From an uncultured Spirochaetota bacterium (lineage in GTDB: Bacteria; Spirochaetota; UBA4802; UBA5550), in the NCBI GenBank assembly GCA_963827275.1, contig CAWHAA010000005.1:544001-608000 (forward strand): 64,000 nucleotides of DNA. Reading direction: 5' to 3'. Both the position numbers and the translations under genes were made by a program. The notes beneath the pieces are model-generated. The model was not told the DNA's origin. It was given only the letters and a program-made list of their open reading frames with translations, and searched no databases. Positions 57,012 through 64,000 of the stretch are shown piece by piece (the first letter of the stretch is position 1; each line of letters opens with the position of its first letter).

Positions 57012-57611
57012 TCATAAAAATAGACTCTCTGGAAAAATTCGCTTCCTGTACATATTCTCCAAATCCAGCAAAACCCTTTTCCGTTCAGCAAAGATTTTTC
57101 CCAATTGAAGAAAACATTCATGCAAGGTAATTTTAACTGGAGAAATGTAATTATCACTCAAGTAACACAGGATACTACTATAAGGATAATTTCGAGGATC
57201 AACAACTATTTTACTTTTAACCGGATTATAGGCCAGATAAAAGAAAACCGCGAAAAAAGTTGCGACAGGATCATTTGCTAACTCAATTATATTATCTCTA
57301 AATCGTTCATTCCAGAACGGACCAATTCTGTTCATTATACGATTATATCGCCTGGCAAATTGCGCCTTGATATATTGCATAATCCTTGAAATAGTCTCCC
57401 CTTCATTGATTGTCCTGATAAGAAAATGAAAATGGTTATCCATTAACGTATAAAAAATAAGCTCAAATTTATATTTTTCAAGAGCCTTCCTTAATACTTG
57501 TAGCATTAAATCTTTCATTTCATCAGAGCTCATGAGATGTTTCCCCTCTATGCATCGAGACATTGTATGATAGGTTAATTCTGGCATACAAATTCTATTT
57601 TTCCGTGGCAT
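57012..57611 (-). mobile_element. REP-associated tyrosine transposase (RAYT / Y1 HUH, IS200-like)
   Basis: MPR start, YH..SR, MDNHFHFL (HUH), YNR...R.GPFW.ERF, Y...NPVK (catalytic Tyr region), YPYSS; flanked by GTCAGAGTAA motifs at 56789, 57699 and 57925. Confidence 0.88.
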
Positions 57612-57850
57612 GGCTTTGCCTTCTCCTTTACATAAATGGTGAATTCTTATAATCAATGTGTATACGAACGCTAACATTCTTATGTATAAGAAAAATTCGG
57701 GTCAGAGTAAAAAAAACAATCTTTGATCCATCTGTCAACATATGGGCCTGAGTAAATTATTCTAAGATAGTCACAATTATTACAAAATCATGCTAAATGT
57801 TAAGCACATGTAAAATAATCCCGAAATCAATCTCTATTAAATAAACCATA

Positions 57851-57879
57851 TTGACAGTCGATTGGGTGATTACTATTTT
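57851..57879 (+). promoter_or_regulatory. Possible sigma70 promoter of the gat/asp operon
   Basis: TTGACA-17 bp-TATTTT. Confidence 0.4.
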
Positions 57880-57952
57880 AAATGATATTAATCATTTATA
57901 GAGTTTAATATCATTTAAAATATTGGGGTCAGAGTAAGATATTCATTGAGTT

Positions 57953-60844
57953 ATGATTGAATTAAACAGAAAAACATCCAAAGAAATCGTACAATTGGTC
58001 AACAAGCGAGCCATATCGTGTGAGGAATTGATCCGCCATTATCTATATATGATGGAAACGTATGATCCGCTCCTCGGTTGCTTTACATCGACACGCGACA
58101 CAGAGCAACTACTGATCCAGGCTCGTGAAAGCGACACCCGCAGAAGCCGGGGCGAGGAAAAAAGCCCGATTGATGGCATCCCCATAGCCATTAAGGACAA
58201 TATTCACTCGATGGGCATCCCTACTACCTGCGGATCGGCAATCCTTGAAGGATATCTTCCTCCTTACGATGCCACCACTGTGGCCAGATTGAAAGAACGA
58301 GGGGCTATAGTTATCGGTAAGACAAATCTTGACGAATTTGCCATGGGTTCAACATGCGAAAACTCCGCCATAAAAATAACCCGCAACCCCTGGGACACTG
58401 GCCGTGTACCGGGAGGCTCTTCAGGCGGATCAGCTGCCGCGGTATCGGCCGGTTTTGTGCCGTTTGCTCTGGGCAGTGACACCGGCGGCTCAATCCGCCA
58501 GCCAGCGGCATTTTGCGGCGTAACTGGCCTCAAGCCGACCTACGGTCTGGTCTCACGCTACGGGCTCGTCTCCTACGCATCGTCCCTGGACCAGATCGGG
58601 CCGTTGGCCCGCGACGCGTACGGCTGCGCCCTTCTCCTGAACGCAATAAGCGGGTTTGATCCCCATGACTCGACGTCGCTGCCAGGCCCCGCGGTCGACC
58701 ATTCAATGCACCTGTCAGCAGGCATTCAGGGGCTGCGGCTTGCGGTCATCCCGGAGCTTTTTACGGAAGGGATATCACCCCTGGTGCGCGAGCAATTCGA
58801 AGATTCGATACAACTGCTGGGCGGACTCGGGGCGATGATCGGGGAGGCCTCGATGCCGTCCCTTCATTATGCTATAGCAACATATTATTTTATCGCATGC
58901 GCCGAGGCAGCATCAAACCTTTCACGCTACGACGGCGTGAAATACGGATACCGGAGCGGGAGCCAGCGCGATTATCATGAGATGCTGTTCACCTCCCGCT
59001 CGCGCGGCCTTGGGCGCGAGGTTAAAAAGAGGATACTTCTCGGGAACTTCGTGCTTTCATCAGGCTATTACGACGAGTACTACTGTAAGGCGCTGAAGGT
59101 GCGTGCCTTTATACGGGAAGATATCATGAGGATTCTTGAGGCCTTCGATGCCATCGCCATTCCATCAACCCCTGACATCGCGTTTCCACTCGGCGAGAGC
59201 CAGAGCGACCCGATGAAAATTTACCTCTCGGACGTGACCACGGTTATCGCGAACCTTGCCGGGCTCCCCGCTCTTTCCGTGCCCGCGGGCATGGTTCATG
59301 GGATGCCGGTCGGGCTCCAGCTGATCGGGAGGCCCCTTGATGACGGCAGGCTCCTTGGTATCGCTGCGGCGTACGAGCGTGAGCGCACGACCTCGTTTTT
59401 TCCCCCGCTTGATGTGATGTCCGATACCCTGACCCGTACGGGCATGCTGGATACGCAAAAAAATAACGGCATTCCCGCGGAAAAGGCCGTATCGTCCTAC
59501 AGCCCGGAATTTATCGGCGGGATATCCCGTTCCTACATGGCCCGCTCAACAATGGCGCCGGTGCGCGTCCTCTGCAGCATGCTTGCACAGAGCATCAACC
59601 AGCGAGTCACCATCGCCGGATGGATCCACCGGAAAAAGAGCCTCGGCGGCATAGAATTCTACGAGCTCCGCGATAGGACCGGGTTTACCCAGCTCGTGCT
59701 CGAAGGCGGCAGGCTCGATGAAAGGATAAACCTGGAAACTGTAGTGGAAGTAACCGGGACCGCAACAAAGGAAGGCCGCAGTCCCTTTGATAACATCGAA
59801 ATAAAGGTGGAGTCAATTACTATCCTTGGGAGCGCTGATTCAAACCTGCCGTTGTCGCTAAACCGGCCCCTTACGAATGTGACCCTCCCGACAATACTGG
59901 ACAACCGCGTCATCTCGGTCCGGAACCCGGACATCCTCCGGGCCTTTCGCTTGCAGTCTGAGATCGTTCGGCTGTTTTCGGAATATCTCCGCGCGAATGA
60001 TTTTACCGAGATGAAGACCCCGAAGATCATAGCGTCCGGCACCGAGGGAGGCACCAACATCTTCAAGGTAAAATATTTCGGCCGCACCGCCTACCTCGCG
60101 CAGTCCCCGCAGTTCTACAAGCAGATAATGGTGGGAAGCGGCCTCGAGCGCGTATTTGAAGTCGGGCCGGTGTTCCGTGCCGAGCACCACGACACCGTGC
60201 GCCACCTGAACGAATACATCAGCATGGACTTCGAGATGGGGTTCATCACCGACGAGCAGGACATCATCGATATGCAGGAGGGGCTGCTCCGGCACATATT
60301 CGGCGGGCTGGCAGAGCTCCGGCCCGCATTCCTCGAGGCAGATGAGCCGCTGGCGTTCCCGGAGCGCATTCCCCGCGTCCATTACCTCGAGGCGCTCGAT
60401 ATCATCCGTTCCGCCGGCGGCCGCCTCGAGGAAGGCGATATCTCCCCCGAAGGGGAAAAAATACTGTGCAGCCATTTTGAAAGAACAGGCGGATCAGAGT
60501 TCGTATACGTGATCGGCTACCCGGTAAAAAAACGGCCAATGTACACCATGCCTGACGAGCGCGTGCCGGGTTACACGCGAAGCTTCGACCTGCTCTACCG
60601 CGGCATCGAGATAACTACCGGGGGCCAGAGGATCCATGACTACGACATGCTCAAAGACAATATGAAGATGCTCGGTTTCAATCCCGCGGAATTCCGCGAC
60701 TACCTGGAGACCTTCAGGTTCGGCATGCCGCCCCATGGCGGGCTCGGTATGGGGCTCGAACGCCTGACAATGAAGATTCTGAAACTGAAAAATATCCGTG
60801 AAGCTAGCCTATTCCCGAGGGATATCAACAGGATAACGCCGTAA
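57953..60844 (+). CDS. gatA-aspS: Fusion of amidotransferase subunit GatA and archaeal-type non-discriminating aspartyl-tRNA synthetase
   Basis: aa 1-485: KDN, GKTNLDEFAMGS, GGSSGGS, GSDTGGSIRQPA, NLSRYDG; from about aa 534: GWIH..LRDRTG OB-fold, YLAQSPQFYKQ, FRAE, PPHGG.G.GLERL, FPRD. Confidence 0.9.
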   Translation: MIELNRKTSKEIVQLVNKRAISCEELIRHYLYMMETYDPLLGCFTSTRDTEQLLIQARESDTRRSRGEEKSPIDGIPIAIKDNIHSMGIPTTCGSAILEGYLPPYDATTVARLKERGAIVIGKTNLDEFAMGSTCENSAIKITRNPWDTGRVPGGSSGGSAAAVSAGFVPFALGSDTGGSIRQPAAFCGVTGLKPTYGLVSRYGLVSYASSLDQIGPLARDAYGCALLLNAISGFDPHDSTSLPGPAVDHSMHLSAGIQGLRLAVIPELFTEGISPLVREQFEDSIQLLGGLGAMIGEASMPSLHYAIATYYFIACAEAASNLSRYDGVKYGYRSGSQRDYHEMLFTSRSRGLGREVKKRILLGNFVLSSGYYDEYYCKALKVRAFIREDIMRILEAFDAIAIPSTPDIAFPLGESQSDPMKIYLSDVTTVIANLAGLPALSVPAGMVHGMPVGLQLIGRPLDDGRLLGIAAAYERERTTSFFPPLDVMSDTLTRTGMLDTQKNNGIPAEKAVSSYSPEFIGGISRSYMARSTMAPVRVLCSMLAQSINQRVTIAGWIHRKKSLGGIEFYELRDRTGFTQLVLEGGRLDERINLETVVEVTGTATKEGRSPFDNIEIKVESITILGSADSNLPLSLNRPLTNVTLPTILDNRVISVRNPDILRAFRLQSEIVRLFSEYLRANDFTEMKTPKIIASGTEGGTNIFKVKYFGRTAYLAQSPQFYKQIMVGSGLERVFEVGPVFRAEHHDTVRHLNEYISMDFEMGFITDEQDIIDMQEGLLRHIFGGLAELRPAFLEADEPLAFPERIPRVHYLEALDIIRSAGGRLEEGDISPEGEKILCSHFERTGGSEFVYVIGYPVKKRPMYTMPDERVPGYTRSFDLLYRGIEITTGGQRIHDYDMLKDNMKMLGFNPAEFRDYLETFRFGMPPHGGLGMGLERLTMKILKLKNIREASLFPRDINRITP

Positions 60845-60856
60845 AATCAGATTGTT

Positions 60857-61074
60857 GGGGTCAGAGTAAAATCTATTTTTGGGTAATGGTGTCAGAGTAA
60901 CCGTGCTACCGATAACTATCGGTCATGTATGAAGGGGTCAGAGTAAAAGATAAAAAGATAAAGGGGTCAGAGTAAAAGATAATGATTAGAAAACAAATAA
61001 AGTCTACAAACATAAAAAATATGTCAGATATTTCCCGCTCCTGATATCTGGAGCCGGATAAGGGGTCAGAGTAA
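60857..61074 (+). repeat. REP-like cluster between the two gat genes
   Basis: GG(G/T)GTCAGAGTAA at 60857, 60888, 60934, 60963 and 61062; palindrome ACCGATAACTATCGGT at 60908. Confidence 0.9.
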
Positions 61075-61079
61075 CTACC

Positions 61080-62846
61080 ATGACTGATAAAGCCCGGATC
61101 AACATCGACAACCTGATAGAGCTCGGCTCATTTGAAGTGACCGTGGCAGAAAAGGAGCAGCTCCGGGGCGAGCTTGCCGAATTCCTGGAATACGCCCGGG
61201 TGATAAACGGCGCGCCCCAGCACCTGCCCCCGGCCAGCCATGCTGTTGATAAAGAACAACTGCTGCGAGACGACACGTCCGAGCCCCGGGGCGACCGTGC
61301 GCCGCTCCTCGGCAACGCGCCCGCCCTCCAGGGAGAAAGCTACCTGGTGCCGCCCCTCGCGGGAAGCGCCGCCACCGGTGAGGAAAAAAGCGTACCGTCT
61401 TCAGGCGCGGGTTCCGGAGTGTACGAGGTCGTGATCGGGCTCGAGGTGCACGCCCAGCTCAATACAAAGAGCAAGCTCTTCTGCTCCTGTCCGGTCGGGT
61501 TCGGGAGCGCGCCGAACGCCAATACCTGCCCCGTCTGTTCGGGCCAGCCCGGCGCCCTCCCGGTGCTGAACCGCGAGGCGGTCACCATGGCGATCATGGC
61601 GGGCCTGTCAATGGGATGCACCATCAACCGGCGATCACTCTTCGCGCGGAAAAACTATTTCTATCCTGACCTGCCCAAGGGCTACCAGATATCCCAGTTC
61701 GAGGAGCCTATCTGCAGCGGCGGCACCGTGGCTATCGAGCTTGATGGAATGATAAAAAATGTCCGCCTCAACAGGATCCACATGGAGGAGGACGCGGGCA
61801 AGCTCGTCCACGTGGGCGCACCGGGCATCTGGGGCTCCAAGGCGAGCGCGGTCGATTACAACCGGTCAAGCGTGCCCCTGGTCGAGATCGTCACCGAGCC
61901 TGATATCGGGTCGCCCGCCGAAGCGCGCGAGTACATGGTGATGCTCCGCTCCATCCTGGTGTCCCTCGGCATCTGTGACGGCAACATGGAAGAGGGAAAT
62001 CTCCGGTGCGACGCGAACGTGTCCCTGCGCGAGCGCGGCGACGAGGCCCTCGGCGTGAAGGTGGAGATCAAGAACATGAACTCCCTCAAGGCGATCGAGC
62101 GCGCCCTGTCCTACGAGATCGCGCGGCTCGGGACGATGAAAAAGAACAATATCCCCATACGCCAGGAGACCCGGCTCTGGGACGAAAGCGGCCAGAAGAC
62201 CTATTCGATGCGGAGCAAGGAGGAGTCGCACGACTACCGCTACTTCCCCGACCCCGACCTCCTGCCGCTCATGGTTGACGACGACTGGATCGAGCGCGCG
62301 CGGAAAGCGCTGCCGCCCATGCCGCTTGAGCGGAAGGCCCGCTACCAGCGCGAATTTTCCTTCAGCGAGCCTGAAGCGCGCCTCTTCATGATCAACCCCG
62401 CGTACGCGGACTTCTTTGAAAAGGCGCTCGGGTCCTATGACAACCCGCGCAACCTGGCGAACTGGCTCTTTTCCGAGCTGCTCTCCCACGAGGGCGACTT
62501 CGACCGCCTGCATATCACACCCGGGGATTTCGCCGCCTTTTTAAAAAGGGTCGACAGCGGCGAGATCAGCGGCAGGCTCGGCAAGGACATACTGCGCAAG
62601 GCCTTTGCCGGCAAAAAGGGCCTGGTCGAAATAATTGACGAAGAAGGCCTGAAACAGGTCACGGACCGCGGCGCCATAGAAGCCGCGGTGGACGAGGTGA
62701 TACGGGCCAATCCAGGCCAGGCCGCCGAATACCGAAGCGGCAAGACCAGGGTGCTCGGCTGGTTCGTGGGAGAGGTCATGAAGGCCACGAAGGGCAAGGC
62801 CAGCCCGGGGGTGGTGAATGAGGTGCTGAAGGAAAAATTGAAGTAA
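61080..62846 (+). CDS. gatC-gatB: Fusion of amidotransferase subunits GatC and GatB
   Basis: aa 1-93 GatC-like (LRDD...LLGNAP...YLVP); Ser/Gly linker; then YEVVIGLEVHAQL, RKNYFYPDLPKGYQI, HMEED, YRYFPDPDL, GEVMKATKGKA. Confidence 0.9.
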   Translation: MTDKARINIDNLIELGSFEVTVAEKEQLRGELAEFLEYARVINGAPQHLPPASHAVDKEQLLRDDTSEPRGDRAPLLGNAPALQGESYLVPPLAGSAATGEEKSVPSSGAGSGVYEVVIGLEVHAQLNTKSKLFCSCPVGFGSAPNANTCPVCSGQPGALPVLNREAVTMAIMAGLSMGCTINRRSLFARKNYFYPDLPKGYQISQFEEPICSGGTVAIELDGMIKNVRLNRIHMEEDAGKLVHVGAPGIWGSKASAVDYNRSSVPLVEIVTEPDIGSPAEAREYMVMLRSILVSLGICDGNMEEGNLRCDANVSLRERGDEALGVKVEIKNMNSLKAIERALSYEIARLGTMKKNNIPIRQETRLWDESGQKTYSMRSKEESHDYRYFPDPDLLPLMVDDDWIERARKALPPMPLERKARYQREFSFSEPEARLFMINPAYADFFEKALGSYDNPRNLANWLFSELLSHEGDFDRLHITPGDFAAFLKRVDSGEISGRLGKDILRKAFAGKKGLVEIIDEEGLKQVTDRGAIEAAVDEVIRANPGQAAEYRSGKTRVLGWFVGEVMKATKGKASPGVVNEVLKEKLK

Positions 62847-62852
62847 GTGAGA

Positions 62853-64000
62853 CTACTTGAAGCGCCAGAGGGTCATTTGTGGATGATCTTCAAAAAAACA
62901 TGTGTCCACCAGTAAAATCTTACCATGATAATCCAGTATCATGGAGGCTCCAGCTATTGAATTATGAGTCATCTCATATGGAAGATACCCACCAAGCCCA
63001 AAAGAATAATCCAACATGCCATTTTCATAATAACGCCAAATGACAAAACCCTTGTTATAATAGCCTGATACTAGTAATCTATTCTTTGAATCTGAAACAA
63101 TTGTCATGCCCTTCTGAAATTCATAATAATCTTCAGAAATTCTATAACTTCTTACCATTCCGTTTAGTTCCAAAATTCTCATCAAGCTCACCATTTTCAT
63201 CAAAACACCAAACCGCCATCGTTAACAAAGATGTCATTTCGTTTTGACTAGTACCACTAACCAATATTCTATCCTGTGAGTCAATTATTACGCTCATTCC
63301 ATAATCGAGACAACTTGATTGAGCATTAAAAGAAGCATCATCTCCAACAAAAAGGCCACCAACACAAAAATTCAAATCTGGTGTACCATTTTCATGATAC
63401 CTCCATAACGACATACATTTATAACAAATTGGATAATCAAGAAACTCATCATCTTCATATGCAACACTACCACAGGCTACAATTTTATCTTCTTCATCAA
63501 TAATAAAATCATTACATAATGTTTGAATAGCTGGAGCCCGTTCACCTTCAGAAGCATCACTAATTATAACACCTGTCGAATTAAATCCTTCATCTAATAT
63601 TCCATCACAGTTATATCGCCATAGTGCCATATATATTTTAGTATCAGGTGATAACTATCCCTCCACATACAACAATTCTTCCTCTACTATCAATTTTTAT
63701 TTTTTTGCCAATAGTATCTCCACCAAAAGCCGGGTTGTACTCATGAGCGTCAAAAACCGCAAATATAGTAAGCTTGTTAATCTTGGCACGTTCATCATAT
63801 TTCCAGATGATCATATTATAATGACCAGATTTTTCAACAAAACCAGTAATGTAAATTATCCCACTTGAATCTATTGTCATTCCACTCGCCGAACTTAAAC
63901 TATATAACTCTCCTTTCACATCTGCAGTAGAACCTGTGATATAGCCATTCGTACCGAATCCCAAATCCGGTGATCCATCGGGATTAAAACGCCAGAGAGC
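62853..64000 (-). pseudogene. Low-GC delta-60-repeat (beta-propeller) protein, broken by two frameshifts; 5' part lies outside the window
   Basis: Recurrent WRY..NG.LD..FG..G and ID..G.I.V.G units across ORFs 63644-63964, 63142-63630 and 62853-63203. Confidence 0.65.

Follow-up and report, generated by a model that had tools for sequence, protein, structure and literature searches.

The window analysed here is a stretch of 64,000 nucleotides from an uncultured Spirochaetota bacterium (G000:C5:544001-608000), whose source assembly comprises 4.13 Mb in 11 contigs and is 92% complete. Toward its end, two fusion genes that unite the components of an asparagine (Asn) transamidosome lie on the forward strand. 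The first, gatA::aspS (57953..60844, +), encodes a 963-aa protein that joins GatA to an aspartyl-tRNA synthetase (AspRS); the second, gatC::gatB (61080..62846, +), encodes a 588-aa protein that joins GatC to GatB. Both are open reading frames (ORFs) without internal stop codons and are identified by domain profiles, together with homologues that span their junctions and structure models. The spacer of 235 nt between them (60845..61079, +) contains five copies of the repeat GTCAGAGTAA and no terminator-like site; in other adjacent pairs the gap ranges from -4 to 631 nt, with a start/stop overlap in four. A genome search shows that the two fusion ORFs are the assembly's only gatA, gatB and gatC, two other amidases matching at 27-30%, and tblastn finds the N-terminal part of gatC::gatB to be the sole gatC-like region. 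Public runs that contain at least half of the window's words number 12 and come from 7 studies (bioreactor, manure, wastewater, freshwater and sediment).

The 963-aa chain is organized as a complete GatA, a linker of about 51 aa and a complete archaeal-type AspRS, as the preliminary description of this DNA had proposed. Both halves exceed their equivalog cut-offs, with 564.9 bits against 481.1 for TIGR00132 (gatA) and 417.5 bits against 368.4 for TIGR00458 (aspS_nondisc), and Pfam places an Amidase domain at residues 25-468, an OB domain at 552-625 and a tRNA-synt_2 domain at 647-957. The GatA glutaminase domain (aa 1-486; 57953..59410, +) has the GatA fold over residues 2-486, matching 2df4_A with a Z-score of 56.7 and a root mean square deviation (rmsd) of 1.9 over 472 aligned residues. 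Its triad is intact and, following known motifs, is taken to consist of K81, S156 and S180, which are kept in 68, 70 and 70 of 74 aligned fusion homologues, the others being fragments and one dead copy. The accessible part of PMC2330236 gives the GatA triad as Ser-cisSer-Lys.

The AspRS half (59564..60844, +) aligns from R538 onward over 426 aa, and its closest solved structure is 1n9w, the non-discriminating (ND) AspRS2 of Thermus (E 5.5e-103), to which it aligns with few gaps and without a GAD insertion. The anticodon domain carries the expected ND-type residues: H559 and P611 align with the His and Pro of the Thermus enzyme, and W and K stand in their place in the Thermococcus AspRS, which we take to be a discriminating enzyme. 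Both positions presumably have mutational weight for non-discriminating specificity. His and Pro are each found in 65 of the 74 fusion homologues, Tyr replacing His in nine and Pro being missing in nine. The motif-2 arginine R742 is present in 74/74, the motif-3 arginine R937 is intact, and the active-site residues are near-invariant; R609, in an anticodon-domain loop specific to the family, is kept in 73/74. The AlphaFold model of the whole chain has a predicted local distance difference test score (pLDDT) of 73.8 and a predicted template modelling score (pTM) of 0.54, so that no fixed arrangement of the GatA and AspRS domains is predicted. The AspRS half of this monomer model is poor (template modelling score 0.55-0.64 to targets, rmsd ~23), and no geometry was taken from it.

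The linker between the two enzymes (aa 487-537; 59411..59563, +) begins with a variable segment of low confidence (pLDDT <50 at 493-514) and continues into a helix (Y516-R531; 59498..59545, +) that is modelled at 518-529, with a pLDDT of 83 for 521-530. Across the 74 homologues this helix is conserved at I521 (69/74), S525 (72/74), Y528 (72/74) and Y/F516 (69/74), and the spacing between positions 477 and 538 is 52-66 aa in every one. The linker is more than a plain spacer and contains a conserved helix. Its identity with the N-terminal helix of eukaryotic AspRS was rejected, the best match to 4j15 reaching only E=1.0, and a complex prediction of the segment 505-536 with GatA and AspRS gave 0.44, the same as the control (0.44), and was not used as evidence. 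These features bear on a neutral or stoichiometric explanation, which we consider unlikely: a fusion of operon genes would fix a 1:1 ratio and co-inheritance, leaving a dual-specific GatCAB and an ND-AspRS that receive their tRNA in trans. The roughly 25 variable, low-confidence residues and the low pTM of the chain are compatible with such a fusion, but a length held this narrowly and helix residues nearly invariant across 44-99% identity argue against it.

The second chain consists of a GatC domain (aa 1-92; 61080..61355, +), a linker (aa 93-114; 61356..61421, +) and the cradle, helical and tail domains of GatB (aa 115-588; 61422..62846, +). The GatC match is weak, spanning residues 21-90 with 25.9 bits against a cut-off of 23 for PF02686 and 24 bits against 47.1 for TIGR00135; helices are modelled at 9-16 and 22-44. 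GatB scores 533 bits with TIGR00133 (cut-off 314.8), and its metal/ATP residues H124, E237 and E269 are invariant in 48/48 aligned members. The bacterial 3-10 turn is recognizable as well, since N302-M-E-E aligns gap-free with K183-M-E-E of Staphylococcus aureus GatB, the turn that reads U1-A72 (the comparison is based on the accessible part of PMC2811023). The AlphaFold model of the chain has a pLDDT of 79.1 and a pTM of 0.73; the linker is predicted to be disordered (pLDDT <50 at 87-111) and is 20-25 aa long in the 48 members. Its Ser/Gly/Ala-rich composition, which had been singled out earlier, holds for this genome only, the linker being often K/E-rich among the aligned members. In 17-18 of 18 fused rows a GatB loop, G246-W251, is conserved, and 35/36 free rows show a gap there; it was rejected as a unique insertion, as a loop of comparable length exists in Thermotoga GatB. 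Judged from their sequences, the catalytic modules of both chains are all complete, and the evidence supports the view that two chains take the place of four proteins and that GatA provides the tether for AspRS.

A search for homologues spanning the junctions, in which the best 8000 candidates were scored, found both halves of GatA::AspRS in 74 of 120 listed clusters, 67 of them full length, with 44-99% identity. Their sources are named as Spirochaetes/Spirochaetota metagenome-assembled genomes and Ca. Uabimicrobium amorphum, and one partial entry bears the name 'Chrysiogenales'. For gatC::gatB, 83 of 120 listed matches cover at least 96% of residues 1-200 and hence the GatC-GatB junction. Among the best 150 matches of a hidden Markov model search of 1.84 billion representatives there was one full-length GatA::AspRS cluster with fragments, and no second, distant family; two further candidates, P0484 and P0456, were rejected by blastp and NCBIfam. 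The fused layout is real and conserved rather than a one-off.

These homologues refute the reading, to which we attach virtually no credence, that a missed stop codon or an assembly error joins ordinary genes or that the locus is decaying. Indels do occur elsewhere in the assembly. The bacterial aspS (L002:4159, G000:C6) is frameshifted by one extra base near codon 12, which is absent from the contigs of 4/4 runs (four studies) and is therefore an assembly error or strain-private; the carA, carB and gltB frames are also short, and the assembly therefore probably carries indel errors. Some cluster members are, moreover, annotated as stand-alone halves. Against this, the two junctions are bridged in 74 and 83 independent clusters, among them a 9.5-Mb contig (P0068, P0202), five short members start or end inside the linker in the manner of partial gene calls, and the interruption of one relative's cassette (G003) is a gap of 159 N.

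Among 41 related genomes, the GatA::AspRS fusion is present in 19, a free gatA in 20 and neither in two; the carriers comprise 16/17 genomes of the genus and 3/3 of family f5. The gatC::gatB gene is complete in 17 of these 19 close carriers; in the remaining two, an N gap or the end of a contig interrupts it. In a sample of 401 genomes of the phylum, 40 match the junction query, 36 with a fusion-type gene (three ended by the contig) and four with a free AspRS. The two genes are adjacent on one strand in 29 genomes, and where no partner is adjacent, all of the carriers tested (5/5) encode a fused gatC::gatB elsewhere in the genome. Both junctions are thus retained in every carrier with complete sequence, even after the two genes have separated, which speaks against a neutral fusion. 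At least two fused loci were found among 80 contig loci listed; a further one, L013, was rejected as a free AspRS, and the named loci L010 and L011 were excluded from the genome counts to prevent double counting.

Quick trees of subsets of the matches place the fused GatA (33 rows), AspRS (34 rows) and GatB sequences in one clade each, Uabimicrobium included, with support values of 99, 99 and 100 in the Shimodaira-Hasegawa-like approximate likelihood ratio test (SH-aLRT). Two 'free' GatB entries within the fused clade are identical or nearly identical to the GatB part of fused genes and were discarded as exceptions. The free gatA and gatB found in this order fall into a clade of their own, and a tree uniting fused and unfused members of the family is rejected (approximately unbiased test, p 9e-87). 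GatA alone groups with the free copies of the order at 83, but the concatenated Gat subunits do not. A single origin of the fusions is supported by these trees, and either a transfer with subsequent replacement or an ancient paralogy followed by differential loss would fit. The sister of the fused AspRS is a free AspRS encoded in gatA-gatB-aspS operons of other spirochaetes (SH-aLRT 96), an unfused operon of the kind from which a neutral fusion could arise. The Uabimicrobium copy bears the UniRef name 'Multifunctional fusion protein', and other database names are GatA/GatB. In two Spirochaetaceae loci (L059:3584-6001 and L070:3614-6001), a GatB fused to an asparaginase-fold domain lies upstream of the sister AspRS.

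The genome encodes ND-AspRS, GatA, GatB, GatC and a tRNA-Asn(GUU) with U1-A72 and G73, the former pair being a tRNA identity rule according to the available text of PMC9976931. It also encodes AsnRS, GlnRS, GluRS, a bacterial-type AspRS and an AsnB-family protein, all above cut-off. The presence of AsnRS departs from the preliminary expectation that asnS might be missing, and with it goes the implied dependence on the fused route. No tRNA-Asp was found at default settings in this 92%-complete genome; a tRNA-Sec is present (G000:C8:213595-213686). A second AspRS of bacterial type occurs in 18/19 close carriers, and 15/16 carriers of f9, f23 and f38 have a separate archaeal-type AspRS, whose clade shows Gln, Asn or Ser in place of the His together with a longer loop. 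This distribution suggests that the second AspRS performs the housekeeping charging of tRNA(Asp). Leu at the His position of the bacterial enzyme, a discriminating type, was rejected as a trait specific to carriers, being found in 13/13 carriers and 16/18 non-carriers. Twenty relatives (in the range G017-G040) retain a free gatA though nearly all have AsnRS and GlnRS; most of these have Leu at this position and no AsnA-like or AsnB match.

A second AspRS in nearly every carrier would permit specialization, and the family-specific loop with R609 and the tether could favour tRNA(Asn). The fused AspRS might in that case be tRNA(Asn)-specific, the Asn counterpart of Helicobacter pylori GluRS2, and the particle in effect an 'AsnRS' that depends on glutamine and does not charge tRNA(Asp) at all. 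We regard this as very improbable. The anticodon domain bears the ordinary ND signature, and Thermus and Deinococcus likewise possess two AspRSs, the second of which is truly non-discriminating as described in the accessible portion of PMC4206432.

The distribution of GlnRS suggests which substrate the fused enzyme may serve. Of 19 further carriers, nine encode GlnRS, each with the fused gatB only, and ten have no detected GlnRS, nine of which possess a second, free gatB; a free gatA was found in 3/3 of the latter that were searched. In the 19 close carriers GlnRS is present in 18, and none has a second gatB. Over all 38 carriers a second gatB is therefore found in 9/11 GlnRS-negative and 0/27 GlnRS-positive genomes, and the contrast recurs inside two families, f9 (G202 versus seven others) and f23 (G092 versus G121 and G137). 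Fisher's test for the further carriers gives p 1e-4, a value that is overstated because the carriers are kin. The pattern suggests that the fused enzyme is dedicated to Asn and is not a Glu-tRNA(Gln) amidotransferase. The simplest reading is that it does not supply Gln-tRNA(Gln), whether through specificity, steric exclusion of GluRS or regulation. Under the neutral explanation, the second gatCAB of GlnRS-negative genomes would be kept for regulation or dosage rather than specificity; consistent with that explanation, the bacterial GatCABs studied were all dual-specific in vitro, as far as the available text of PMC2330236 reports.

A putative direct route to asparagine lies on the same genome. 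Just before asnS, a gene (L001:4042-5277, G000:C6) encodes a 411-aa AsnA-like class II paralogue that matches PRK06462, an archaeal asparagine synthetase A, with 125.9 bits, below the cut-off of 309. Its only Pfam match is PF00152, and its best solved matches are 1nnh and 3p8t (E ~1e-10). The protein is annotated as hypothetical, and its best 120 matches, nearly all of them 411 aa long, share 65-100% identity with it. The gene is present in 21/38 carriers and 3/22 non-carriers and usually adjoins asnS or the cassette; asnA-like and/or asnS directly adjoin the cassette in 6/38 carriers (G028, G034, G039, G306, G372 and G081). The paralogue is a putative ammonia-dependent asparagine enzyme.

Upstream of the cassette, a palindrome resembling TTAC-N6-GTAA with one mismatch (57798..57815, +) is a candidate nitrogen-regulon operator by its conservation in the genus and its recurrence. 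It precedes a sigma70-type promoter-like site, TTGACA-17-TATTTT (57851..57879, +), which is proposed from its consensus match (10 of 12). ATTGACA with a -10-like hexamer is found upstream of the cassette in 16/16 fusion-bearing members of the genus, and in 15 of them a TGTAA half-site is located 42-43 nt upstream of the -35 hexamer; the box of the sixteenth (G015) scores 24.8 without having been used in training, and related boxes precede the cassettes of f5 and g23. A perfect 18-bp inverted repeat at 57874-57922 overlaps the -10 hexamer and was not noticed in the relatives' upstream regions viewed. No Asn-rich leader peptide or T-box was seen by eye in the part of the upstream regions inspected, where no Rfam search was made.

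A matrix trained on cassette upstream regions alone, leaving out this genome and the closest one, ranked asnB 2nd, the cassette 6th, gltB 10th, carA 12th and the asnA-like gene 55th among 5067 ORF upstream regions. The strict palindrome has 19 sites in the genome, five of which precede asnB, carA, carB, gltB and the asnA-like gene; near-matches (TTAC-N6-GT(A/T)A) stand before GSIII, gdh, glmS and two of the four amtB-like genes, names that Pfam confirms. A relaxed form precedes 84/5069 ORFs, one copy lying before glnS. For one strict box, the purF-like name given to the gene that follows it failed confirmation at E 1e-12. In relatives, the box stands before gltB in 4/4, before carA in 6/9 (at -115/-116), before asnA-like in 4/9 and before asnB in 1/11, and among controls 1/29 aspS and 1/20 unfused gatA upstream regions reach a score of 11.2. 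These boxes suggest that the cassette is co-regulated with nitrogen-assimilation genes in this uncultured spirochaete genus, and they point to the existence of a nitrogen regulon there. On the neutral explanation, the box alone could account for the failure of the cassette to supply Gln-tRNA constitutively.

Taken together, these observations make it probable that the locus encodes a glutamine-fuelled Asn transamidosome that is pre-assembled independently of tRNA and belongs to a nitrogen regulon. Following the chemistry of GatCAB, the GatA half of chain 1 would bind GatC::GatB as in the ordinary amidotransferase, and the AspRS halves would dimerize, as expected for class IIb, to give a 2+2 particle of ~340 kDa (from length) before tRNA binds. 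AspRS would load Asp onto tRNA(Asn) (U1-A72, G73), the 3' end of which would swing to GatB for phosphorylation of the Asp, and GatA would supply ammonia from glutamine, so that Asp-tRNA(Asn) would not be released. The fused enzyme may thereby provide the genus with a glutamine-fuelled route of asparagine biosynthesis beside a direct route formed by AsnRS and the putative ammonia-dependent AsnA-like enzyme. Channelling, assembly and activity are all predicted from the gene sequences.

Several observations weigh against this pre-assembled, regulated transamidosome. AsnRS is above cut-off in 34/38 carriers (17/19 close, 17/19 further), so that the fused route is not needed for translation; nor does the cassette merely make up for something missing, because AsnRS, GlnRS and Leu at the His position of the bacterial AspRS (16/18) are shared by unfused relatives. 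Both tRNA-Gln of the genome share U1-A72. The contrast in GlnRS and second gatB is seen within two families only, whose members are not independent, and the GlnRS-negative genomes are 71-98% complete; among them, G183 (86% complete, 490 contigs) has no second gatB, and G011 has no GlnRS match and a single gatB. One fused GatA copy (P0070; G121:C30:131430-134204) is dead, its triad K being changed to A and its nucleophile S to N. With regard to regulation, the strict palindrome is not enriched genome-wide (19 sites versus 9-17 with other spacers), the box is weak or absent before 10/11 asnB and 5/9 asnA-like genes of relatives, and it was not seen before the distant cassettes of f9, f23 and f38, where all 13 scanned score below 11. 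The genome that hosts the dead copy also keeps a free gatA and gatB.

A further-reaching version, possible although doubtful, holds that the two chains form a tRNA(Asn)-specific amidotransferase, in effect a nitrogen-regulated, glutamine-fuelled asparagine synthetase, with a putative global regulator acting at TTAC-N6-GTAA through which cells would switch between it and the putatively ammonia-dependent AsnA-like/AsnRS route. Specificity would arise because AspRS is bolted on and GluRS cannot partner. If true, it would break the rule that bacterial GatCAB is dual-specific and also the rule, stated in the accessible part of PMC2330236, by which GatCAB is not used for Asn-tRNA in genomes that bear AsnA.

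The predicted pre-assembled particle finds its nearest known counterpart in the Asn transamidosome found in Thermus thermophilus (PDB 3KFU, 1N9W), which has the same components and the same His/Pro signature. According to the accessible parts of the sources, the Thermus host, like this genome, also encodes AsnRS, GlnRS and a second AspRS (PMC4206432), but it uses four separate proteins whose complex needs tRNA(Asn) to form, where two chains are encoded here, and it lacks AsnA and AsnB (PMC2330236), whereas the present host has an AsnB-family protein and the AsnA-like paralogue. An Asn transamidosome is defined by the non-covalent assembly of its subunits on tRNA(Asn); here AspRS is covalently joined to GatA and GatC to GatB. 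The fused system thus appears, from its sequence, to work like a transamidosome while being built differently.

Other covalent links between AspRS and an amidotransferase subunit exist in databases, and the chemistry of the present system is known. In the AspRS-GatC fusion NF009460 / PRK12820, a C-terminal GatC follows AspRS; here an archaeal-type AspRS lies behind GatA and ends the chain at residue 963, and GatC opens the next gene and is joined to GatB. NF009460 matched the bacterial-type AspRS of this genome below cut-off and was not among the best 25 families for the 963-aa protein. The extra AspRS and extra GatCAB of Clostridium acetobutylicum are unfused and reportedly under T-box control, whereas a DNA palindrome is the candidate control here. 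Two Gat subunits are also united in the GatC-GatA fusion of Mycobacterium smegmatis, but that is a laboratory mutant, which raises mistranslation, and the available text of PMC7541841 reports no natural gatC-gatA fusion in ~500 genes; what occurs naturally here is a link between GatC and GatB, 20-25 aa long. The literature searched, which covered few subscription papers and no supplements, yielded no account of the GatA-AspRS or the GatC-GatB fusion, and the fused layout is apparently unstudied.

The reason why indirect amide pathways persist beside direct ones is an open question in the field, in the words of the accessible part of PMC2330236. With the fused system, channelling and the redundancy of the pathways become open to direct tests, and the value of channelling could be measured directly, because the natural tether can be cut. 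The pattern of GlnRS and second gatB yields a sharp prediction on substrate dedication, and a stable two-chain particle would be a convenient object for a structure with tRNA. Together with the AspRS-GatC fusions, the present layout suggests that this complex has been hard-wired repeatedly and independently.

The surroundings of the cassette contain mobile and repeated elements. A Y1/IS200-like (RAYT-type) transposase lies beside it at 57012-57677 (-), a homologue of which occupies the same place in one relative only (G009). Eleven copies of the GTCAGAGTAA repeat are scattered near the cassette between 56035 and 61075, and about 70 exact copies of GGGGTCAGAGT are found genome-wide. Downstream, at 62853-64000 (-), DUF5122 repeats occur in three short AT-rich frames, which are probably parts of a single frameshifted gene.

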